From an uncultured Christensenella sp. (lineage in GTDB: Bacteria > Bacillota > Clostridia > Christensenellales > CAG-917), in the NCBI GenBank assembly GCA_910584155.1, contig CAJTYG010000001.1:29663-93662 (forward strand): a stretch of 64,000 nucleotides of DNA. The letters are read 5' to 3'. Positions 2,732 through 40,914 of this stretch are shown one piece after another. How positions within the stretch are numbered: position 1 is the stretch's first letter; every line of letters starts with the position of its first letter. Position numbers and translations under genes: made by a program. The notes under the pieces were generated by a model. The model searched no databases and was not told the DNA's origin. It was given only the letters and a program-made list of their open reading frames with translations.

Positions 2732-4522
2732 TTATTTGATAGGCTCGAAATCCGCAACGCCGTGCTTGCAGAGGGGGCAAACGAAGTCCTCGGGCAGCTC
2801 TTCGCCCTCATAGACGTATCCGCACACCTTGCACACCCAGCCCTTTTTGCCCTCGGTTTGAGGACGGGGCTTGACGTGTTGCTGATAGTAGTTGTATGTC
2901 ATCGTTTCGGTGGGCTCTATCACACGAGACTCGGTGACGGTGCAGACAAACATTCCGTGCGTGTCGAGGTCGATATATCTTTCCACCTTGAGGGACATAA
3001 ACGAGTTGATATATCTCGGCAAAAACACCACGCCGTTGTCCGAGCGCAGAAGCTGCTCGCTACCCGCAAATTTGTCAGTATCTCTGCCGCTGTGGAAGCC
3101 AAACTGCTCAAACACAGCAAACGGAGCGTCCGTAGATAGGCAATTTACGTTTAAAACGCCGGTCTTTTTGATGATTTCGTGCGAATAGTTTGCCTTGTTT
3201 ACGGCAACGCCTATGCGGTTTGGCGAGTTTGTAAGCTGAGTTACGGTATTGACGATAAGTCCGTTGTCCTTGTCGCCGTCCCTTGACGTGACGACGTAAA
3301 GCCCGTATCCTATCTTAAATAACGCCGTAAGGTCGTTTTTATCCGCCGCCTCGGAGCGAGCCACATAATCTCTGCAAAGCTCGGTCGCCAAAGCCTCTAT
3401 CTGCGCAACCGATTCCTCGTTGAGCGCAGACATTATGCGCACGGTGTTTTCCGCATATGTGAGGTTTTTGCTGCCCTCGAGCATACTCTTCATCACACGT
3501 GTTGCCATAGGCGCCCAACTGCCGTTTTCAATGAAAGCGACCGTTCTGTTTTGGAAGTTGCGCTCGGTGAGGTGATGTATAAACTCTTTCATAAACGGGA
3601 AGACGTCTGCATTGTATGTCGTTGTGGCAAGCACTATCTTGCTGTATTTGAATGCGTCCTCAACGGCTTCCGCCATATCGCATCTTGCGAGGTCGCAGAC
3701 GGACAGTTTTTCACAGCCCTTTTCCTCAAGCTTTTTGGCAAGCAGCTCGACCGCCTCTTTGGTGTGCCCGTAAACGGAAGTATATGCGATGACAATGCCG
3801 TCCTTCTCCGCCTGATAGGACGACCAGATGTTGTACAGATTGATATAATATCCCAAATTTTCGGTAAGCACAGGTCCGTGCAGAGGGCAGATTATTTTGA
3901 TATCCAGTCCCGCCGCCTTCTTCAACAGCGCCTGCACCTGCGCACCGTACTTGCCAACTATGCCGATATAATAGCGGCGTGCCTCGCAAGCCCATTCCTC
4001 ATCGACGTCGAGTGCGCCGAATTTGCCAAAGCCGTCCGCCGAGAAAAGCACCTTGTCTGTAGAATCGTATGTCACGATGACCTCGGGCCAATGCACCATA
4101 GGCGCAGCGACAAACGTAAGCTCATGCTTGCCCAGCGACAGCGTATCCCCCTCGCCTACGACAAGATTGCGACCTGCAAAATCCGTGCCGAAAAACTGCT
4201 CCATCATCTTAAACGCCTTTTGCGAGGACACGACTGTTGCGGCAGGATATGTGTTCATAAACTTCACGATGTTTGCCGAGTGGTCTGGCTCCATATGCTG
4301 CACGATGAGGTAGGCAGGCTTTTTGCCGCCTAAAACAGCCGCAATATTTTGCAACCACTGCTCGCCAAAGCGAGCGTCTACGGTGTCAAAGACCGCAATT
4401 TTATCGTCCAAAATCACATAGGAATTGTATGCCATTCCGTTTTCAACAACGTACTGACCTTCAAACAAATCGATATCGTGATCGTTTACGCCGACATATT
4501 TTATATCGCCAGTGATATTCAT
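2732..4522 (-). CDS. Multidomain flavodiiron protein: metallo-beta-lactamase-like diiron + flavodoxin + flavin-reductase-like + C-terminal rubredoxin
   Basis: N-terminus has the HMEPDHSAN diiron/MBL motif, followed by a flavodoxin-like segment and a flavin-reductase-like segment (LYVVTSRDGDKDNGLIVNTV). The C-terminus WVCKVCGYVYEGEELPEDFVCPLCKH is a rubredoxin CxxC...CxxC. Start set at ATG 4522, preceded by a GGAGG RBS. Confidence 0.85.
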   Translation of the reverse strand: MNITGDIKYVGVNDHDIDLFEGQYVVENGMAYNSYVILDDKIAVFDTVDARFGEQWLQNIAAVLGGKKPAYLIVQHMEPDHSANIVKFMNTYPAATVVSSQKAFKMMEQFFGTDFAGRNLVVGEGDTLSLGKHELTFVAAPMVHWPEVIVTYDSTDKVLFSADGFGKFGALDVDEEWACEARRYYIGIVGKYGAQVQALLKKAAGLDIKIICPLHGPVLTENLGYYINLYNIWSSYQAEKDGIVIAYTSVYGHTKEAVELLAKKLEEKGCEKLSVCDLARCDMAEAVEDAFKYSKIVLATTTYNADVFPFMKEFIHHLTERNFQNRTVAFIENGSWAPMATRVMKSMLEGSKNLTYAENTVRIMSALNEESVAQIEALATELCRDYVARSEAADKNDLTALFKIGYGLYVVTSRDGDKDNGLIVNTVTQLTNSPNRIGVAVNKANYSHEIIKKTGVLNVNCLSTDAPFAVFEQFGFHSGRDTDKFAGSEQLLRSDNGVVFLPRYINSFMSLKVERYIDLDTHGMFVCTVTESRVIEPTETMTYNYYQQHVKPRPQTEGKKGWVCKVCGYVYEGEELPEDFVCPLCKHGVADFEPIK

Positions 4523-8833: not shown

Positions 8834-9323
8834 ATCCCCTCCTGCCAAACGCACGTAGCATTTGACATATCATATATACAATAATTTTAACAGTATTACA
8901 CGGCAATTTCAAGACTAAATTTGTACAAAATGTCAAATTGTACAATAATTGGTTTACTTGTTTATTAAAAACCACTAAATATAGAAAATTTGCCTAAAAA
9001 TAAGCAAAAAAATGCATAATCGAAAAGAATTTAAGCAGCGAAATCTATTAACCACACATATATATCACTTAAAACGCAACAATGCGCCCATACCGCCAAA
9101 AACACATCAAAAAGTGCATTTTTAAATACGATTAAATTGTGAAACTATCATCAAAAAATAAGCAAAAATTTGAGAAACTTTCACCCTCAAAAAATTTGGG
9201 TGAAAGAACGCAAAATTAGCTAAAATTTGCTTAAAACTCAACACGGACAAAAAAGAAAAGTTTTTCAAAAGCCACTAAACAGCCGCAAAAGCCCCACTGT
9301 TTAGTAGGTTTTTGGCAGTTATC

Positions 9324-9339
9324 AGTTCCACGTGAAACG
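9324..9339. promoter_or_regulatory. parS-like site (14/16 match)
   Basis: AGTTCCACGTGAAACG versus the Bacillus-type parS TGTTNCACGTGAAACA. Confidence 0.6.
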
Positions 9340-9354
9340 AATTGCCACCCAAAA

Positions 9355-9370
9355 TGTTTCACGTGGAACA
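9355..9370. promoter_or_regulatory. parS site (perfect)
   Basis: TGTTTCACGTGGAACA is the reverse complement of TGTTCCACGTGAAACA. Confidence 0.85.
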
Positions 9371-9391
9371 TCGCCATGCCGCCCATTTGAA

Positions 9392-9407
9392 TGTTACACG
9401 TGAAACA
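9392..9407. promoter_or_regulatory. parS site (perfect to TGTTNCACGTGAAACA)
   Basis: TGTTACACGTGAAACA. Confidence 0.85.
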
Positions 9408-9721
9408 TCTTGGACAACCCTGTTTTAAGCCATCATAGAACTACGATTTGACAGCATCTCAAATTGCACTGTCAGATAAAAGTAAATATAGTTTGCCGTA
9501 TTATTAAATCTGAAAAGCCTATAGCCCAAATGACGATTGTCGCAAACCGCTGCCGACCACAATTTACAACTAATAAAATTTATACACCGTTGCTTTGGTG
9601 GTTATCAGCTACTTGATATATCCGACTGCATTAGAAGTACACAGAACCACAGACAGCTATGGCGCTATGTTTATGATAATGCCGCCACATCACACAGATA
9701 TTAAAGCACATTATTTAAAAA

Positions 9722-9737
9722 TGTTACACGTGAAACA
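9722..9737. promoter_or_regulatory. parS site (perfect to TGTTNCACGTGAAACA)
   Basis: TGTTACACGTGAAACA, identical to the 9392-9407 copy including the flanking aa/aT context. Confidence 0.85.
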
Positions 9738-10959
9738 TTTTGCTAAATTTAAGCAAATATTGCCAATTTGCACTCGGCTAACCACGATTAAACATATAAA
9801 AACCGCCACCTAAGTGACGGCTTATATTTGAATTATAATCTATTCAGACACCCGATGTACTTATTCAGCATAGACCGGGCCATAGTGACAAGAAACAATG
9901 CTGCTTGACCGGCGTCACGCAAATGTTTGCGCTATGGTCAACAGAATAGATTATGACAATATTATATCCAGCGCTTATCAGACTGTCAACCTTTTAAACT
10001 CAGGTTGTAAATATTTGCATTTGCAGCAATGATAATCAATGTAGTAAATCGCCAGCATTAAATCAATTCATAACGTCAAATAAACGATTGATTCAATGTC
10101 AAAGCTTTATGTTGGCTGTATTTAATATTTGCATAACGGATAAATATTTTGTATTTACGGATATTTCATAAATACAAGCGAAATAGTCCCTGTTTTACGC
10201 TATATTTAAGCAATTTAGGCTTTATATTTGATTGATGCTTGATTTTAACTACGCTATATTTGATTGATATTTGATATTAGCTGCAATAAATTCAGTGCGG
10301 CGCATATGATCAAAATTAGTATTATAGATATGTTGCATTATAAAAATAAATGCGATTATCAATATAGTTAAAATGTGCTACATCCTATAATCGCTTTAAA
10401 ATTATATCAAACCTGAACCGTATTATATTATTTGTAATGCAATCATTATCAACTCTAAATTTAAACATTGTAATTGATATGCTTATCAATTTAAAACTCT
10501 TCCAAATGCGATCGACAGCCGATTTATGCCAAACTTTCATTTTACATATTTTATTGGCAAAGTAAATCATTTCTGCGTTTGTATCTGCAATTTTTATTAT
10601 TGTTGAATTTTGATATTTGCAAATCGTAATTTTGATATATGTTAATTTTTAAATTTCGAATTATTTATATTCGTTAATTATTATGGTTTATATATTTAGT
10701 TTACTTGTAAATCATTTATTCTAATAATTTCTGCTCGATTTCTTATATTTTTTTATGATTTTACTTGTATTTTTGTGCAAAATACTTATGTTTTTTGTGC
10801 GATATCTCGTATCCGTATGTGCAATTACTTACATATATTTATCTGCCGCACAGTGAAAACGGTCATCTGTTTTCGTGATAAGCTGTGCAAAAACCTTTCA
10901 ATTTTTGTGCTTTGTGCTTTTATATTGCTTTACAACCTTAAATAATTTACAAAATGAGG

Positions 10960-10988
10960 TTGATTTTTCTATATATTACTGATATAAT
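10960..10988 (+). promoter_or_regulatory. Putative sigma-A promoter of gyrBA
   Basis: TTGATT, 17 nt, TATAAT, about 60 nt upstream of the gyrB ATG (RBS AGGAGG at 11041-11046). Confidence 0.5.
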
Positions 10989-11014
10989 CTATTTACTTAT
11001 TATATTGTATATAA

Positions 11015-12961
<1,947 letters not shown>

Positions 12962-18682: not shown

Positions 18683-18923
18683 CTTTTCCTCTCTCGATAC
18701 ATTATATAGATTTTACCCGTGTTTTTCAATGACAAAACGCATTTTACGCCGTCAACGCTCGGTTGACGCATATATTTTACAGTATTTATCCGATATATCT
18801 TACATAGCGCACCCAAAGCTTGCTACTCAGGCGATTTTGCCGACAAATAAATTGCGCATATAAAGTTGGTGCAAATATCCGTTTTGTCTTGAAAAATTTT
18901 TTCGGTTGTGTTACTATCTTTTT

Positions 18924-19691
18924 ATGGCTCGAATAATATCCTTTTCAAATCAAAAGGGCGGAGTGGGCAAAACCACGTCCTGCGTAAACTTAGCTACCTG
19001 CCTTGCTATGAGAGGCAAGCGTGTGCTTATTGTCGATTTTGACGCACAGTGCAATGCGTCAAGCGCTCTGGGCGAGTTTGACAAGCAGCCGCAAAAATCC
19101 GTATACGACGTTATATGCAGCGACCTGCCCGCAAGCGAGGCAGTGCGCAAATCGGAAATAGAAAATCTTGCTTTCATTCCGTCGTCCTGCGATCTCGCAG
19201 GAGCGGAGCTCGAGCTTTCGCAAATAGTCATCGGCAGAGAACGGGTTTTGCAGGAAAAGCTTTCCGAGATAGAGGACGGCTACGATTTTATCTTTATCGA
19301 CTGTCCGCCGTCGCTCGGGCTGCTCACGGTCAATGCGCTCACTGCGTCAAACGGCGTGCTTATCCCCATACAGAGCGAGTATTATGCGCTCGAGGGCTTA
19401 AGCCAGATGATGAACACCATTAAGCTCGTCAAAAAGTTTTTAAACAAGGACTTAGAGGTGGACGGCGTGCTGCTCACTATGTTTGACAGCCGCTCAAAGC
19501 TTTCACGGGGCGTACTCGAAGAAATATCAAAGGTATTCGGCGATAAAGTATTCGATACAAAAATACCCCGCAATATCAGGCTTGCCGAGGCGCCAAGCTA
19601 TGGCAAACCCGTTATGTTATACGACAAAAAATGCACGGGCGCACTCGCTTACGAAGCCCTTGCGGACGAATTTTCGGCAAAAATAAATTGA
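18924..19691 (+). CDS. parA: Chromosome partitioning ATPase ParA/Soj
   Basis: ARIISFSNQKGGVGKTTS is the deviant Walker A, followed by DCPPSLG. parB is directly downstream. Start placed at ATG 18924. Confidence 0.93.
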   Translation: MARIISFSNQKGGVGKTTSCVNLATCLAMRGKRVLIVDFDAQCNASSALGEFDKQPQKSVYDVICSDLPASEAVRKSEIENLAFIPSSCDLAGAELELSQIVIGRERVLQEKLSEIEDGYDFIFIDCPPSLGLLTVNALTASNGVLIPIQSEYYALEGLSQMMNTIKLVKKFLNKDLEVDGVLLTMFDSRSKLSRGVLEEISKVFGDKVFDTKIPRNIRLAEAPSYGKPVMLYDKKCTGALAYEALADEFSAKIN

Positions 19692-19699
19692 GGTGAATT

Positions 19700-20626
19700 A
19701 TGGCAAGCAGCAAAGGCGGATTAGGCGGAAAGGGTATGAGCGCTCTTTTCAGAGACAACACCCAAAACGTGAGGGTGGAAATTGACGGCGGACTGACCAC
19801 GCAGGAGATCGACATACATCTTATCGACCGCAACCCCTCGCAGCCACGTAAATCGTTTGACGAAGAAGCGCTTAAATCAATGGCGGCTTCCATTTCGATG
19901 TACGGCGTGCTGCAGCCCATACTGCTCGTAAAAAGCGAGGGCGGCAGATACCTTATCATCGCAGGCGAACGCCGTTTCAGAGCAAGCCTGCTCGCAGGGC
20001 TCAAAACTATCCCTGCAATAATAAAAGAGCTTTCACCGCAGGAAATACAGGAAATCTCGCTTATAGAAAACCTGCACCGTGAAAACCTCAACGCTATCGA
20101 AGCCGCCGAGGGCATAAAAGAGCTTATGGAAAATCACGGGCTCACGCAGGAAGAGGTCGCCGTGCGCATAGGCAAATCCCGCCCGTACGTCACAAATACG
20201 CTGCGCCTGCTCCAACTGCCCGACGAAGTTATGGAAATGGTCAAAGAGGGCAAGCTTTCACCCGGACATGCCCGCACAATTCTCACCGTCGACAACAAGG
20301 AAAAGCTCATCGAATTTGCAAAGCTCGCCTGCGACGAGGATATTTCCGTGCGTGATTTGGAGCGCATCGTGCAAAACTACTTTGCGGACAGCTCGCAACA
20401 GGAAAAGCAAACCAAGCGCAAAGCAAAAGAGCCGCTACCTATCGAGCTCAAAGCGTTTGTCAGCGATATGAAACGCCTCTTTGCAACCAAAGTAAAGCTT
20501 GTGCGCAACGGCTCGAGAGGCCGCATAACGATAGATTACTTCAGTGACGACGACCTTGAGCGTATCCACGCAATAATGCAGCTGCTTCAAATCTACAACA
20601 ATCAAAACAACAATAAACCAAACTAA
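19700..20626 (+). CDS. parB: Chromosome partitioning protein ParB/Spo0J
   Basis: NPSQPRKSFDEEALKSMAASISMYGVLQPILL, IIAGERRFRAS (the GERR arginine patch) and LTQEEVAVRIGKSRPYVTNTLRLLQLP (HTH). GAGGTG RBS. Confidence 0.95.
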   Translation: MASSKGGLGGKGMSALFRDNTQNVRVEIDGGLTTQEIDIHLIDRNPSQPRKSFDEEALKSMAASISMYGVLQPILLVKSEGGRYLIIAGERRFRASLLAGLKTIPAIIKELSPQEIQEISLIENLHRENLNAIEAAEGIKELMENHGLTQEEVAVRIGKSRPYVTNTLRLLQLPDEVMEMVKEGKLSPGHARTILTVDNKEKLIEFAKLACDEDISVRDLERIVQNYFADSSQQEKQTKRKAKEPLPIELKAFVSDMKRLFATKVKLVRNGSRGRITIDYFSDDDLERIHAIMQLLQIYNNQNNNKPN

Positions 20627-20673: not shown

Positions 20674-21516
20674 ATGCAGTGCGTATATTGTGGTTCTCAA
20701 AATATTGAAAGTGACAATCAAAACGATATTTTTATTTGTAATAAGTGCCACAAATCTTATAAAAAAGAATACTTTTTTATATCACACTCGCACAAAGATA
20801 TAGAAAAGGTAAGGATAGTACGCAACACAATAGAAGAAAGTTTTTATAATGAACCAATACTTTTCTTTTTGAAATGCCTTGAAGATGACAATGAGATTAC
20901 TTCGCTTTTAAAACGAGAAATAGACGCTCGCCGATGGTTTATTTATTGTAACAGTAAAAACGCAGACGCCTCAAAATACGTACAAGAAGAGCGTAAATAT
21001 GTACAAAGTTTAATAGATAAGGGGATAAACAAAAATATAGTTACTATAGATTTAGATAAATTTTCTTTGGATAAACCCGATGAAATTAAAAAATTTACAT
21101 TGCGGCAACTTAAAAAACGTTTTGCTTTTATCTCATATAACCAAACTGATATTCAATATGCAAACCAAATTTATAATGACCTTACAAATATTGGATGTAA
21201 TACTTATTGTATTGCCTGTCATAATTATGATATTGAAAACGATTTTGGTTTACATATTAACAACACAATACAAAATATCGCAAAAAACAATGGATATTTT
21301 ATTATTTTACTATCAAAAAAATCTTTATCAAACAATTTTGTTAAATATGAATATGACCTTGCTGTAAAAAATAACTGCATCATTTTACCTGTACTGATTG
21401 ATTTATCATTTAATGATGAGGAATTGATGACAAAATTTCCCATATTTCAAAATACAACAATGCTGAAATACACGGATAATTTTGCAAATGAATTTTTAAA
21501 ATTTAATCCAATATAA
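20674..21516 (+). CDS. Zinc-ribbon + tandem TIR-like domain protein
   Basis: The N-terminus CVYCGSQN...CNKCH is a zinc ribbon. It is followed by FFISHSHKDIEKVR and a second FAFISYNQTDIQYANQIYNDL...YFIILLSKKSL, both matching the TIR beta-A/alpha-A (F-I-S-[YH]-x-x-x-D) and beta-D patterns. Lies in a strongly AT-rich island. Confidence 0.6.
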   Translation: MQCVYCGSQNIESDNQNDIFICNKCHKSYKKEYFFISHSHKDIEKVRIVRNTIEESFYNEPILFFLKCLEDDNEITSLLKREIDARRWFIYCNSKNADASKYVQEERKYVQSLIDKGINKNIVTIDLDKFSLDKPDEIKKFTLRQLKKRFAFISYNQTDIQYANQIYNDLTNIGCNTYCIACHNYDIENDFGLHINNTIQNIAKNNGYFIILLSKKSLSNNFVKYEYDLAVKNNCIILPVLIDLSFNDEELMTKFPIFQNTTMLKYTDNFANEFLKFNPI

Positions 21517-22566: not shown

Positions 22567-23664
22567 TCAAAATTTTATTATCTGTCCTTCATTTATTGTT
22601 ATTTTGTTTTTTGCACCGTCCAATAAAAATTCGGTGCAGGTGAGTATAGTTTGAAAACCGTCCGTCATTTTTAACAACAGATTTTGTCTTGTGATGTCAA
22701 GCTCGCTCAGTACGTCGTCAAGCAAAAGCACGGGCGGCTCGCCTATTTCGTTTTTGTATATCAAAACCTCGCCGAGCTTAAGCGCAAGCGCAACTGTGCG
22801 TTGCTGTCCTTGCGAGGCAAATTTTCGGCTGTCCTTTCCGTTTATCTCAATCTTTAAATCGTCTCTGTGCGGACCTACAGTGCTATATCCAAGCTCTTTG
22901 TCCTTTTCTCTTGATTTTGTAATTTTTTCAAAAAGTCGGGCTTCTATATCCTCTAAATTCATATCCGCAGAAAAATCAAATGCGCTTTCGTATGAAAGAC
23001 ACAAATCTTCCTTTTCACTGCTTATTGCAGTATGAAATTTTTTTGCGCTGTCGTTGAGGGTGACAACGTACTCAAGCCTTTTTTTTATTATAACAGCACC
23101 TTCCTTTGCAAGTCCTGCGTCCCAAACGTCAAGCATATCGTCTATATTCTTATTGCCTCGCCACTCTTTAAGCAGATTGTTTTTTTGCTTTAGTGTTTTA
23201 TTGTATCTTTGCAGCGAGTAAAAATATCCTCTTTGCTGCTGACTTAAACCTACGTCCATAAATCTGCGCCTTTCCTGAGGCGCTTCTTTTACAAGCTTCA
23301 TTTCGTCGGGTGAAAAGAACACTACGCCCAAAACTCCGAAAAGCTCGCCCGCTCTGTTAAGGGGGATATTGTCAACAAAAACCTTTTTCTTGCCTTTTTC
23401 GTCTATCTGCAAATTTATGATGTGCTTTCTGAATTGCTTTTGTAAAACAAGCCTTATGTTTGCACACTTTTCGCCGAGCAGCACCATTTCCTTATCGGCT
23501 GCCGTGCGTGGGCTTTTAAATATCGAGCAAAGATATATGCTTTCAAGCATATTTGTCTTTCCGCTTGCGTTTTTTCCGCATAAAACATTCAGCCCGTCCG
23601 CAAAATCTACGGCGGCGTGCTTGTAGTTTCTGAAATTTGAAAGCTCAAGAGAAAGGATTTTCAT
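22567..23664 (-). CDS. recF: DNA replication and repair protein RecF
   Basis: MKILSLELSNFRNYKH...LCGKNASGKTNMLESIY (Walker A), SQGQQRTVALALKL (signature) and LLLDDVLSELD (Walker B). Confidence 0.95.
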   Translation of the reverse strand: MKILSLELSNFRNYKHAAVDFADGLNVLCGKNASGKTNMLESIYLCSIFKSPRTAADKEMVLLGEKCANIRLVLQKQFRKHIINLQIDEKGKKKVFVDNIPLNRAGELFGVLGVVFFSPDEMKLVKEAPQERRRFMDVGLSQQQRGYFYSLQRYNKTLKQKNNLLKEWRGNKNIDDMLDVWDAGLAKEGAVIIKKRLEYVVTLNDSAKKFHTAISSEKEDLCLSYESAFDFSADMNLEDIEARLFEKITKSREKDKELGYSTVGPHRDDLKIEINGKDSRKFASQGQQRTVALALKLGEVLIYKNEIGEPPVLLLDDVLSELDITRQNLLLKMTDGFQTILTCTEFLLDGAKNKITINEGQIIKF

Positions 23665-23735
23665 TGTGTCAATTATACATTACGGCTTATTTTTTTTCAA
23701 CATCTTGTGTTTCTTTTTTATTTTTTGTTTTTTGC

Positions 23736-23763
23736 TTGAAATATTCGCTCTATTTGTTATAAT
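23736..23763 (+). promoter_or_regulatory. Putative sigma-A promoter of dnaA
   Basis: TTGAAA (23736-23741), 16 nt, TATAAT (23758-23763). The -10 element ends only 9 nt before the dnaA ATG, and no Shine-Dalgarno is visible. Confidence 0.4.
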
Positions 23764-23772
23764 TCAATTATT

Positions 23773-25143
23773 ATGATAAATATAGAAGAATTTTGGGAAG
23801 ACGCCAAAGACGGTTTATCAATATCAATTCAGGCAATAAGCTTTGAGGTGTGGATCGACACCTTAAAGCCCGTTTGTTTTACGGAAAATTCCATTGTTTT
23901 GGAAACTATTTCCGCAAACGCAAAGCGCACCATAGACAACAAATACCGTGATACGATAAAAGAAGTCGTAAACAGTCTCAATCCGTCCATCACAAATGTA
24001 ATTATCATTTTGCCGTCTCAGCGTGAGGAATATTTAAACCGTCAGTCTGTATTTATCGACAATGAGGGCTTTGTCACGTCCGAGCCGCCTGCGCAAAAAA
24101 ACAAAAAGAAGTGTCCTTTCCTTGAAAAATACACCTTTGAGACATTTGTAGAGGGAAAATCCAACTCGTTTGCGCTTGCCGCCTGCAAGACTGTTGCGGA
24201 GGATCCCGGTCACAAATTCAATCCGTTGTTTATCTACTCGGGCGTAGGCTTGGGCAAAACCCACCTTTTGCACGCAATAGGCAATTATATCTGCAAAAAA
24301 TCACCGCAAAGCAACGTGCTTTACGTCAGCGCTGAAACGCTTGTGAACGAGCTTATTTCCGTCATTCGCAACAAGTCTAATGAGGAAAACAACAAGTTTA
24401 GAGAAAAATACCGCTCCTGCGACATACTGATGATAGACGACATTCAGTTTTTGATAGGCAAGGACGCTACGCAGGAAGCATTTTTCCACATTTTCAACGA
24501 CCTTTACAACGCAAGCAAACAAATTATCATCACGTCCGACCGTGCTCCGAGCGACCTCACAATGCTCACAGACAGGATAAGCTCACGCTTCAGTTGGGGG
24601 CTTACCGTAGACATTCAGGTGCCCGATATGGAAACAAGAGTGGCTATCCTCAAAAACAAATCTGCGCAGATGAAGTTTGACCTATCCGACGACGTTGCCG
24701 AGTTTATTGCTGAAAACGCCACCACAAACATTCGTGAAATGGAAGGGCTTTTAAACAAGATTGTATTTTTCAGCTCGCTTACAAACAACGTCATCAACAC
24801 AAGAGAGCTTGCAGCCGAAGCGCTTAGCGATTTTATAGAGGAAAAAAAGGATACGGTGGACGCAAGCGATATCGTCGGGGCAGTGTGCAAATACTATAAA
24901 ATAACCACCGACGAGATTTTTTCCAAAAAGAAAACCAAAAACCTTGTTGAGCCACGCATGATTGCAATATATCTCATAACCGACCTTCTTCCTATGCCGC
25001 TTGTGCAGATAGGTGAAATTTTCGGCGGAAGAGATCACACGACCGTCATACACGCAAGGGATAAGATAACCGACGAAATAAAGACAAATCCCCGAGTGCG
25101 AATCACAGTTGCGGATATAAAAAATATGCTGTTAAACAGATAA
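23773..25143 (+). CDS. dnaA: Chromosomal replication initiator DnaA
   Basis: NPLFIYSGVGLGKTHLLHAIGN (Walker A), ILMIDDIQFL (Walker B), NIREMEGLL (sensor) and GGRDHTTVIHARDKI (domain IV DNA-binding signature). Confidence 0.97.
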   Translation: MINIEEFWEDAKDGLSISIQAISFEVWIDTLKPVCFTENSIVLETISANAKRTIDNKYRDTIKEVVNSLNPSITNVIIILPSQREEYLNRQSVFIDNEGFVTSEPPAQKNKKKCPFLEKYTFETFVEGKSNSFALAACKTVAEDPGHKFNPLFIYSGVGLGKTHLLHAIGNYICKKSPQSNVLYVSAETLVNELISVIRNKSNEENNKFREKYRSCDILMIDDIQFLIGKDATQEAFFHIFNDLYNASKQIIITSDRAPSDLTMLTDRISSRFSWGLTVDIQVPDMETRVAILKNKSAQMKFDLSDDVAEFIAENATTNIREMEGLLNKIVFFSSLTNNVINTRELAAEALSDFIEEKKDTVDASDIVGAVCKYYKITTDEIFSKKKTKNLVEPRMIAIYLITDLLPMPLVQIGEIFGGRDHTTVIHARDKITDEIKTNPRVRITVADIKNMLLNR

Positions 25144-25163
25144 ACTCGTTTTATAACAATAAT

Positions 25164-25194
25164 AAAAAAGCAAAGCGCAAAGCTTTGCTTTTTT
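25164..25194. terminator. Bidirectional terminator between convergent dnaA and dnaN
   Basis: aaaaaagcaaagc-gcaaa-gctttgctttttt. Confidence 0.8.
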
Positions 25195-25215
25195 ATGTAT
25201 TTCTCTTTTGTAAAT

Positions 25216-26316
25216 TTATCCTACTACTCTGAGAGGCAGGATGAAGTAAAGCCACTTTTCGCTATCGCTCTTTATTACACCGGGCGAGCCCGAAGCATTG
25301 AAGTTGAGTGTGATAACGGGCTCGTCTATGACGTGCAGACAGTCTATGAGATATTTTGCATTGAAGCCTATCGTAAGATCTTTGCCGTGAAGCTTTGTCG
25401 TTATCTTTTCGTTTATCTCGCCGTCGTCGCTGTGAGCGTTGAGCAAAATTACATCCTCTTTTATCTCTATCTTTACAAACGCCTTTTTGTCAAGACGGTT
25501 GATGAGAGACACTCTGTCAACGGCGGTTTCAAACAGCTTTTTATCGACTGTCGTCACTGTGCTGAAGGTGACGGGAATTATCTTTTCGTAGTTGATAAAT
25601 TCCTCGCTAATAAGGCGTGTAACTATCTTTGTGTGGAACAGATCCACCATCATATAATTGTTTTCAACATAAACCGTCACGGTGTCGTCGCCGTCGTCTA
25701 TAAGCTTGCTAAGCTCGGATATGCTCTTTGTCGGCACTACGAGCTTGTCTATTATGCCGTTGTTTTTGATGATAGCCTTTGCCATTGCAAGGCGGAAGCC
25801 GTCTGTCGCAACTGCGTCTATCTCGTCCTCTTTTACGTTTAAGCAAACGCCTCTGAGCGACGGACGCCCGTCGTCGGAAGCAACCGAAAACAGAACTCTG
25901 CCGATGATATCCTTAAATTCACGCTTGAGTATAACAAACGAGTTTTGTGTGTCCACGCTTCTGAACATAGGATACTCTTCTGCGCTTAGGCACTTTATTT
26001 GCAGCTCGCTGTCAAGATATCTCAGCACAAGCTTAGTCGTTGTCGTGCCGTCAAGCTCGACCTGTTCTTCCTCTATCTTTTTTGCATAGTCCGCAAACAG
26101 TCTGCCGGGGACAACGATTTCGCCTTCGATGAGCACCTGTGCGTTTATCTTTTTTTCAATAGCAAGCTCCAGATCTGTCGCAAACATAGTGAGCGTGTCG
26201 CCCATAGCGGTGAGTTTAATGCCTTCGAGTATAAGATTGTTTCTCTTTACAGGCAATGCCTTTACAACTTTTGCAAGAGCGTCGCTAAGCTCCTTTCCTT
26301 GACATAAAACTTTCAT
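25216..26316 (-). CDS. dnaN: DNA polymerase III beta sliding clamp DnaN
   Basis: About 366 aa, three-domain clamp pattern: MKVLCQGKELSDALAKVVKALP..., ...DGRPSLRGVCLNV..., ATDGFRLA, ...ILPLRV C-terminus. Confidence 0.92.
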   Translation of the reverse strand: MKVLCQGKELSDALAKVVKALPVKRNNLILEGIKLTAMGDTLTMFATDLELAIEKKINAQVLIEGEIVVPGRLFADYAKKIEEEQVELDGTTTTKLVLRYLDSELQIKCLSAEEYPMFRSVDTQNSFVILKREFKDIIGRVLFSVASDDGRPSLRGVCLNVKEDEIDAVATDGFRLAMAKAIIKNNGIIDKLVVPTKSISELSKLIDDGDDTVTVYVENNYMMVDLFHTKIVTRLISEEFINYEKIIPVTFSTVTTVDKKLFETAVDRVSLINRLDKKAFVKIEIKEDVILLNAHSDDGEINEKITTKLHGKDLTIGFNAKYLIDCLHVIDEPVITLNFNASGSPGVIKSDSEKWLYFILPLRVVG

Positions 26317-26572
26317 ACATCTACCCAAAACTATCCGCCTTTGCGCATAGTTATTTATTATCTTTTATTTTTAATAATGATAACATAAATAAGCGCTGTT
26401 GACAAGTGGAAAACTTAAATCGTCAACTACAACTTGTATAAGGTTTTTTTTAGAAACAACTATATATCGGATTTTAGCATTTTTTTGTTGTAGACAACTC
26501 TGTCCTGTTTGTCAACATTTGTTAAACACAAAACGTGAGTTATAAACACACCTCATAAAAAGCCTTGCTTTT

Positions 26573-27786: not shown

Positions 27787-29037
27787 ATGCAAAAATACAT
27801 TTTTATAAGCTACAGTACAAAAAATACGGAAACAGCATTTAAAATAAAGAACATTCTGGAAAAGAGAGGTTTTGATATCTGGCTGGCACCAAACGATATT
27901 CCGATAGGACAGCGTTATGCAAACGTAATAGAAAAGGCTATTCAAAATTGCACAGTTTTATTGCTTATAATGAGCAGATATATCTGCACTTCTATGTGGA
28001 TAAATAAAGAAATAGAAAGAGCAATAAATTATGGAAAGAACGTTTTTGGCATAAAAATAGAGGAGTTTGAACTGAATGATGAATTTAAGTTTTTACTTTC
28101 TACAACACAGCTTTCTCCGCTATTAAAGGAAACCGATATTTACAGTGAAAAATTTGAACGTATAGTTTGTGATATACAACGAGTTTATAATGGGGAAATA
28201 CCCAGCGGATTACCGCTTAAATATCCTGTTTTTTCAAAAATAGAAGAAGAAAAAACTTATAATAAATCAAATCTTGTAAAATCTGCAAAAGATATGATAT
28301 CTGCATTTTTGTGCAGTAAAGAGGATTGTATAAATATACTTACACAACTGCATTATTCCGAAATAAATAAATATGTAAAGATTTTGTTTAATCAACTTAC
28401 AGATGAACAAAAGAAGACAGTGATGAAAAACCTAAATGAGGCATATAATTTAGCTTTGCTTGATCCGAATTTAAGCGGACGTAAAGAATATGCGGTAAAA
28501 GGGCAGATAATTTATTATATTACACGCTTGTGTGAACACGATGAAAACAGTATAAGTAAATTAAAAAGTTATTATTACAGCGAATCTAATATTTGGCAAA
28601 GACAGTCCATTGCATATGGGCTTGCGGCTCTATCGGAAATTCAGGTTCCTTTTGATTTTGCTCAAAAAATTTATTATGATTGCGATGAAGCAGTAATCAA
28701 CCGTTCTTGGACGCTTGTTTTCTTTGGTGATATACAGGAAAAAGATGCTTATTTATATCTTGACGACGGAAAATGTGATTGGACAAAATGCCGCACAGTA
28801 AGAATCAATAGATTAAAAAAGAATGAATTACAGGCACAAGCATTCCGCTCTTTAGACCTTTGTTTATTGCATTCGTTTTTATCTACACGTGGCTGGGAAC
28901 TTTCTCAGTTTGAAATCGAAGTTGTGAAAAATACAGTTTTTGACAAAAAACTTTTCACAAAACAACAGCTTAGATTTCTAAAAACAGTACAAAAAGAAAT
29001 CGTTAAAAACTGTAAAAAACAAATACGAAAAAAATAA
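27787..29037 (+). CDS. TIR-domain protein with about 280-aa helical C-terminal domain
   Basis: The N-terminus KYIFISYSTKNTETAFKIKNILEKRGFDIWLAPNDIPIGQRYANVIEKAIQNCTVLLLIMSRYICTSMWINKEIERAI is a canonical bacterial TIR. The C-terminal part looks like alpha-helical repeats (HEAT-like?). Lies in an AT-rich island. Confidence 0.7.
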   Translation: MQKYIFISYSTKNTETAFKIKNILEKRGFDIWLAPNDIPIGQRYANVIEKAIQNCTVLLLIMSRYICTSMWINKEIERAINYGKNVFGIKIEEFELNDEFKFLLSTTQLSPLLKETDIYSEKFERIVCDIQRVYNGEIPSGLPLKYPVFSKIEEEKTYNKSNLVKSAKDMISAFLCSKEDCINILTQLHYSEINKYVKILFNQLTDEQKKTVMKNLNEAYNLALLDPNLSGRKEYAVKGQIIYYITRLCEHDENSISKLKSYYYSESNIWQRQSIAYGLAALSEIQVPFDFAQKIYYDCDEAVINRSWTLVFFGDIQEKDAYLYLDDGKCDWTKCRTVRINRLKKNELQAQAFRSLDLCLLHSFLSTRGWELSQFEIEVVKNTVFDKKLFTKQQLRFLKTVQKEIVKNCKKQIRKK

Positions 29038-40149: not shown

Positions 40150-40914
40150 TTATCCGAATATGCTCTGAAATACGGTGCTTATGGGGTTGTGCTCGTAGAA
40201 GAAGCCGCACACCTTTGAGCTTGACAAATATTCGTGCACCGTCGGAATGGTCTTTGCAAGCGCATGCAGTATCGCAAGCACAAGCAGGATAAACAGCAGT
40301 GCAAGCCCTGTGGCAACTATTGCGCCGAGCGTGCGGTCTATTATGCGTACGGCACCGCTGTCGGAGTCGTGCATATTTTTGAATATCTTGCGCAAAAGCC
40401 AGCATAAAAGTGCCAGCACAATGCAATAAAGAATAAATGCGATGACGGATACGATAATACTCGTCAGCATTTTTGCGCAAGCGTCCGCAAGCGTCTGTCC
40501 GTCTTTCTCAATAAATCTTCCCGCAAGCCAGTTTGCAAATTTGGCTTTGCTCTGCTCTACAAATCCGTCGCCTGCGTTTTGAAGCTGAATCTTGTTTATC
40601 GTGCCGTCATATTCTACCTCGATATAATACGAGCCGTCATCTGCAATATGGATAGGCTCTGAAAACACTGCGCCCCAGCCCTCAGCCTTGCTTGAAAACG
40701 AAGCCGTCATATCCTTGACTGCGCCTATCTCGCAGATGGGCGCAAGCGTTGCGCCTACAAGCAAAAGCGAAACGAGTATGATTGCGATAGACTTAAAAAA
40801 GCCCTTGAGCGCTTTTGCAAGTCCGCCGAAAATTCCTCCGAGCAAGCCTAAGCCGAGTATCACAAAAAACACGATGTCCGCATATGGTACTGCCGATAAT
40901 AAATTTGTAATCAT
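40150..40914 (-). CDS. CvpA-family membrane protein
   Basis: The N-terminus DIVFFVILGLGLLGGIFGGLAKALKGFFKSIAIILVSLLLV is typical of colicin V production protein CvpA-like proteins. Has 4 TM segments. Start at ATG 40914, after an AAAGGAAG RBS. Confidence 0.6.
   Translation of the reverse strand: MITNLLSAVPYADIVFFVILGLGLLGGIFGGLAKALKGFFKSIAIILVSLLLVGATLAPICEIGAVKDMTASFSSKAEGWGAVFSEPIHIADDGSYYIEVEYDGTINKIQLQNAGDGFVEQSKAKFANWLAGRFIEKDGQTLADACAKMLTSIIVSVIAFILYCIVLALLCWLLRKIFKNMHDSDSGAVRIIDRTLGAIVATGLALLFILLVLAILHALAKTIPTVHEYLSSSKVCGFFYEHNPISTVFQSIFG

Follow-up and report, generated by a model that had tools for sequence, protein, structure and literature searches.

The four parS sites upstream of gyrB in this uncultured Clostridia bacterium form a single cluster, and we consider it highly probable (at roughly 87%) that this cluster is the chromosomal centromere at which the sole ParB of the genome, encoded at 19700-20626, nucleates. 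The observations behind this reading are the sites themselves, their uniqueness in the genome, their conservation among relatives, the cognate gene set, and a position close to the origin, while the way in which the cluster would work is taken by homology from characterized systems. What is new in this locus is only a conserved module of ~200 bp that flanks the sites. Unless a contig is named, coordinates refer to the window, i.e., the whole stretch of 64,000 nucleotides that was analyzed (C1:29663-93662), which comes from an assembly of 1,917,404 bp in 26 contigs.

The sites were located by a pattern search in which the 16-bp palindrome TGTTNCACGTGAAACA served as the parS consensus. The first of them, parS A (9324-9339, AGTTCCACGTGAAACG), matches the consensus at 14 of the 16 positions, and as both mismatches are at the outermost positions, the 14-bp core GTTCCACGTGAAAC is intact. 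It is followed after 31 bp by parS B (9355-9370), a perfect match on the minus strand (TGTTCCACGTGAAACA), and these two make up a conserved doublet. The remaining two, parS C (9392-9407) and parS D (9722-9737), are perfect matches on the plus strand (TGTTACACGTGAAACA), with D coming 330 bp after C. The successive spacings are thus 31, 37, and 330 bp, which places A to C within 84 bp and A to D within 414 bp. A sequence-only reading of this DNA had already pointed out the same four sites, three of them perfect and one a 14/16 copy, and the crowding of three of the four into 84 bp; the pattern search returned exactly these positions.

This accumulation is far from what would be expected by chance. 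In the window, 7 strand-matches to parS were observed, against 0.18 expected from dinucleotide-preserving shuffles. Over the whole genome (1,917,404 bp), sites B, C, and D are the sole perfect parS, where 0.004 exact sites and 0.19 sites with one mismatch would be expected per genome from its base composition. Further near-matches amount to one site with one mismatch (C3:174812) and two sites with two mismatches. The earlier statement that the window holds no other parS-like CACGTG palindrome is correct in substance: 15 other CACGTG hexamers are present, each with at least three mismatches to parS.

The one-mismatch site at C3:174812-174827 (positions 3812-3827 of locus L036; AGTTCCACGTGAAACA, 15/16) is the sole other near-consensus parS in the genome. 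It is found just upstream of a small gene cluster that includes a DUF6874 gene and is divergent from the genes for an XRE-type HTH protein and a large serine recombinase, neighbors that place the site within an integrated mobile element. Chance could account for it (0.19 expected), as could an element that uses the host ParB.

All four sites of the cluster lie in a stretch of 2.2 kb with 30% G+C (8855-11050), bounded by an alpha-amylase gene on the minus strand and gyrB on the plus strand; no non-coding stretch of the window is longer. Its open reading frames are only 50-72 aa long, and none has a Pfam match at the family cut-off (two hits, with E values of 0.017 and 0.083, are at chance level). 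Neither are these frames conserved in relatives, with the exception of translated parS DNA. With Pfam below the cut-offs and no conserved frame, hidden small genes were rejected, and the surroundings are effectively gene-free, as had been noted before. An RNA gene in the region was dismissed as well, since Rfam at gathering thresholds gave only a tRNA elsewhere, and two hits with E up to 1 are at chance level. According to the alignment of the intergenic DNA, the stretch is poorly conserved, and conservation is limited to three places, namely the parS sites, the gyrB promoter block, and the ~200-bp module. The likely gyrB promoter (TTGATT, a 17-bp spacer, and TG-TATAAT; 10960-10988, plus strand) is situated 1.2 kb downstream of the last parS, and its block is kept in the four closest genomes.

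On the minus strand of the same stretch, a separate unit can be recognized at 9790-9995. It starts with a perfect sigma-70-type promoter (TTGACA, a 17-bp spacer, and TATAAT; 9989-9961), continues with a strongly folding stretch of ~170 nt (z = -4.67), and ends in a terminator (9823-9800), which makes it a candidate small RNA. The unit has no Rfam match and is missing in the 40 relatives searched. It is thus species-specific and falls outside the conserved centromere.

The gene order in the window is amylase (-), the 2.2-kb gap, gyrB and gyrA (+), a PNP_UDP_1 purine nucleoside phosphorylase gene (PNP, -), gidB (+), an HTH gene (-), parA, parB, a TIR gene, recF (-), dnaA (+), and dnaN (-). The parA (soj) gene (18906-19691, plus strand) encodes a Walker-type ATPase of 261 aa (AAA_31, 5e-66; CbiA/ParA). 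The parB (spo0J) gene (19700-20626, plus strand) encodes a protein with a GERRFRAS CTP-pocket motif, the sequence ENLHRENL, and an HTH. As it is the sole ParB_N-family gene of the genome, there is no Noc. Along its HTH, ParB shows GKSR, then T, and then G-H-A-R, in register with R173/T179/G201/R204 of the Caulobacter protein; residues of the R173/G201 type represent the parS-type pattern, as opposed to the Q and R of Noc (PMC7383237). Judged by these HTH residues, the protein appears to be of the parS type. In a comparison with solved relatives, it also scores higher to the parS-binding ParBs of M. xanthus, B. subtilis, Thermus, and Caulobacter than to Noc. A mixed parS/Noc array was discarded on account of this single ParB-family gene and of the window itself, in which no NBS was found within two mismatches. 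Finally, SMC is encoded on contig 2 (SMC_prok_B, 978 bits, above the cut-off).

From the cluster to parA (18906) the distance is 9.2 kb, in agreement with the ~9-10 kb to the parA-parB operon that had been given earlier. The dnaA gene (23773-25143, plus strand) is 14 kb away, and the GC-skew switch ~16 kb, which is <1% of the genome. On the 288-kb contig, the cumulative GC skew has its minimum at ~55 kb of C1, corresponding to ~25 kb in the window, thus at dnaA or dnaN (~24-27 kb). The intergenic DNA flanking dnaA has no DnaA-box cluster, so the term origin-proximal is used here on the basis of skew and gene content. Taken together, a single parS-type ParB gene, a Soj-type ParA, SMC, and the proximity to both parAB and the skew switch point to a chromosomal ParABS centromere.

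The origin region and other parts of the assembly have some peculiarities of their own. The order recF (-), dnaA (+), and dnaN (-) at 22567-26328 is unusual, with dnaA and dnaN being convergent. Two TIR-domain genes (20674-21516 and 27787-29037) are located in low-GC islets on either side of this recF-dnaA-dnaN block, and both are likely defence genes that were inserted in the origin region. Contig C8 holds four DnaA boxes in 56 bp (40152-40207, or 4153-4208 of locus L035), three of which are perfect (TTATCCACA) and which occur in both orientations, between an amidase gene (-) and a PRC-barrel gene (+). As the GC skew is uniform around them, they are probably a DnaA-box cluster outside oriC and not an origin. 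On contig C2, the GC skew changes from positive to negative at ~35 kb and from negative to positive at ~200 kb, which could reflect the terminus together with an inversion, or a misassembly.

The clustering of parS extends well beyond this genome. Of the 41 relatives scanned, whose genomes belong to this genus or to its order, 35 carry sites within one mismatch, and in nearly all of these 35 every parS is on one contig, in a span of ~0.1-2.1 kb. Four of the 25 genus genomes that were scanned lack a parS within one mismatch, and G003 and G014 have none within two. The homologous region was compared over twenty loci plus one single-contig genome. Within the genus, the cluster has 3-5 sites, and in 11 of the 12 loci examined it occupies the long intergenic DNA upstream of gyrB; the exception is G002, where it is next to dnaN. 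In those 11 loci, parAB and dnaA are within ~4-10 kb of the cluster despite several rearrangements. On the other flank, either amylase or PNP is found. Inversion or relocation has affected the gyrBA block between clades, and depending on the species, this block lies on one side of the cluster or the other. Outside the genus, the clusters in other families of the order have 2-3 sites and are immediately next to parAB.

Throughout this comparison, the parS sites are kept while the flanking and intervening DNA drifts. Among 14 genus genomes, the core of parS A is invariant and its outer bases vary, and the spacing of the A-B doublet is 31-33 bp in all 14. parS C is also present in the closest relatives G024 and G006. 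parS D is kept in relatives too, unlike the sequence that separates it from C.

The sequence-only reading had measured the locus against B. subtilis and had regarded a tight intergenic cluster as something out of the ordinary. The Spo0J/parS system of B. subtilis is indeed similar, with an identical consensus (TGTTNCACGTGAAACA) and a Soj-Spo0J-SMC set that is likewise from a Firmicute. Its parS sites are origin-proximal and mostly inside genes, and a Noc paralogue is present, whereas all perfect sites are here in one intergenic cluster, and neither Noc nor, in the window, an NBS was found. According to published surveys, most bacteria have one or a few closely spaced parS (PMC8357415; PMC7333895), scattered sites are restricted to few lineages, the Bacilli among them, and B. 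subtilis with its eight parS over ~0.75 Mb is the exception (PMC8357415). The chosen benchmark is thus an outlier, and the supposed unusualness finds no support in these surveys or in the related genomes (35 of 41 with parS, nearly all of them in one cluster of at most ~2 kb). A review describes the clustering of parS as a general, still unexplained feature (PMC7333895), and a compact cluster has been argued to prevent collisions between SMC complexes that are loaded at distant sites (PMC8357415).

Several clustered systems resemble the one described here, namely those of P. aeruginosa (parS1-4), C. glutamicum (PMC7083940), and S. coelicolor. They have in common several 16-bp palindromes within a few kb near the origin, one ParB with a CTP pocket, a Soj-type ParA, SMC, and sites that are partly or wholly intergenic. 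In P. aeruginosa, for example, two sites of the four-parS cluster near oriC are intergenic (PMC7022226, PMC5961200). In contrast to these systems, the locus packs three sites into 84 bp and all four into 414 bp, a very compact arrangement. It is found upstream of gyrB rather than adjoining parAB, and it is flanked by the genus-specific module of ~200 bp.

Plasmid centromeres (such as sopC of F and parS of P1 with its accessory sites) also have several ParB sites packed in non-coding DNA, and the conserved flanking motifs loosely recall their accessory boxes. The locus differs from them in being chromosomal, with a chromosomal ParB, the universal chromosomal parS, and no identical tandem units. 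A centromere of a plasmid or mobile element was rejected in view of a 288-kb contig that carries gyrBA, dnaA, dnaN, recF, and gidB, the genus-wide synteny, and the single ParB_N gene. A tandem array of the plasmid type was rejected too, given the spacings of 31, 37, and 330 bp and the fact that only the palindromes repeat and the intervening sequence does not. Of the two likenesses suggested earlier, the plasmid-style centromere therefore has to be given up for a chromosomal locus that goes with the only ParB gene, whereas the hub for SMC/ParB loading, as one dedicated locus, holds by analogy. In short, the earlier interpretation would be right on function, as far as known systems can be transferred, and is wrong on unusualness.

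The steps by which the centromere would operate follow from analogy with characterized ParABS systems (PMC7333895). ParB dimers would recognize each 16-bp palindrome through their HTH, bind CTP at the GERRxR pocket, close into a clamp, and slide to the flanking DNA, which at this locus would be largely transcription-free. A single partition complex, a few kb wide, would be built in this way, which ParA/Soj (18906-19691) would then segregate. SMC is expected to be loaded from the same complex, resulting in alignment of the chromosome arms, and one compact cluster would provide one loading point.

The conserved module (9124-9323, plus strand) is genus-specific, abuts parS A, and was defined from alignments, a heptamer map, and a sequence model. 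It contains three heptamers on the plus strand that resemble half a parS site: GTGAAAC (9139-9145), GAGAAAC (9172-9178; G(A/C)GAAAC across relatives), and GTGAAAG (9200-9206). The last of these goes with the box of the module (AAAAATTTGGGTGAAAGA; AAAAATTTGGGTGAAAG with GTGAAAG at 9200). Most modules of relatives have a fourth heptamer, G(A/T)(G/C)AAAG. The 3' part consists of an A-tract, the palindrome CCCCACTGTTTAGTAGG (9292-9308), and a T5 run, which stops 10 bp before parS A. Between species, the 4-nt loop of the palindrome at the centromere copy is inverted (AAAC versus GTTT/ATTT). No reading frame is open through the module across species, and beyond the short hairpin it has no consensus RNA fold (RNAalifold gives -0.3 and -3.8 kcal/mol on the two strands). 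The hairpin (9292-9313) is part of a dispersed family composed of an A-tract, GCCYACT-GTTT-AGTAGG, and a T-tract, with ~6 further genomic copies (C8:51606, C4:167863, C1:256507, C3:128228, C10:~70, and C13:~15070).

As a whole, the module is single-copy in this genome. A sequence-only model was applied to 37 genomes of the genus and detected the module once, at full length, in 31 of them, 20 of these 31 having been left out of model building; it detected no copy in 24 genomes from other genera of the order. For seven independent genomes, the coordinates show that the module is immediately adjacent to the parS doublet. The other six genus genomes have no full-length module; completeness is 82% or less in four of these and 97% in G003, so the module may have been lost in some species of the genus. 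In a comparison with the literature, we did not find it described for model ParABS systems. Most likely, the module is a putative accessory DNA element of the centromere. It might offer additional weak half-sites to ParB or be bound by some other factor, and a terminator or insulator ahead of the loading site is a further option.

A more far-reaching interpretation is that the centromere is composite, with the module (9124-9323) as a functional part of it and ParB loading at the doublet depending on more than the palindromes. We see this as possible, though rather doubtful. The phased half-parS heptamers would then recruit or pre-concentrate ParB, and the palindrome would bind a second factor or be a terminator or roadblock, a division of labor that we suggest only tentatively. 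Extended to the genus, the heptamer array, the palindrome, and the T-run upstream of the 31-33 bp doublet would all be needed for recruitment of ParB or a second factor, or for transcription insulation, which we would likewise not expect to be the case but take seriously. The module is invariably found right beside the doublet, as a single copy, and recurs in 31 of the 37 genus genomes, including 20 that had no part in building the model; the other families of the order, however, have parS clusters without it. Its heptamers (GTGAAAC, G(A/C)GAAAC, and GTGAAAG) share one orientation and are spaced at roughly 29-33 bp, and ParB of P. aeruginosa has been reported to bind the half-parS heptamers GTTCCAC/GTTTCAC (PMC7022226, PMC5961200), but two of the heptamers depart from the parS half-site. 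Nor are half-sites avoided genome-wide, with an observed/expected ratio of 1.11 against a Markov-5 background; an apparent 2-fold deficit under a mononucleotide expectation vanishes with that background, and avoidance was thus rejected. While the non-coding character of the module and its lack of a consensus RNA fold also speak for a composite centromere, 5 of 14 genomes have a C-A mismatch at the fourth stem pair of the palindrome, and with ~6 similar hairpins elsewhere this part may be a generic terminator-like element.

Two other explanations concern the gene-free stretch and its palindromes. It is unlikely that the stretch is or contains oriC, with an AT-rich unwinding element and parS merely embedded in it. 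In its favor, the stretch is the longest non-coding one of the window, gene orientation switches there, no DnaA-box cluster was seen beside dnaA, and 10001-11000 has 26% G+C; this AT-rich part, on the other hand, is unconserved even among the four closest genomes. Perfect DnaA boxes do exist in the equivalent stretch of some relatives, but the box content of relatives is inconsistent (0 to 6), and the 2.2 kb examined here contain one box with one mismatch where ~0.8 are expected. Considering that DnaA boxes are not enriched and that the GC-skew switch of the contig is 16 kb off, at dnaA/dnaN, we rejected oriC in this stretch. We think it very improbable that the palindromes are mainly operators, through which ParB or another CACGTG-binding regulator would control gyrBA or the neighboring transcript. 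Such a role has a precedent in the intergenic parS3 and parS4 of P. aeruginosa, which repress adjacent genes (PMC7022226), and it would agree with intergenic sites that are tied to the gyrB upstream region in 11 of the 12 genus loci examined. Yet the gyrB promoter is 1.2 kb from the nearest parS, half of the genus has the array facing away from gyrB, with G002 having it beside dnaN, and the clusters of other families in the order flank parAB and not gyrB.

With the cluster read as the chromosomal centromere, a tight intergenic group of parS sites near the origin is what would be expected and no anomaly, and an uncultured Clostridia genus receives an annotation of its centromere. The cluster stays together as a unit through several rearrangements of the origin region. 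Should the centromere prove to be composite, the module would represent a type of accessory cis-element that has not been described for chromosomal ParABS systems. The genus-wide module is a testable candidate for an accessory centromere element, and it bears on the question raised in PMC7333895 of why parS sites cluster and what shapes the architecture of centromeres.
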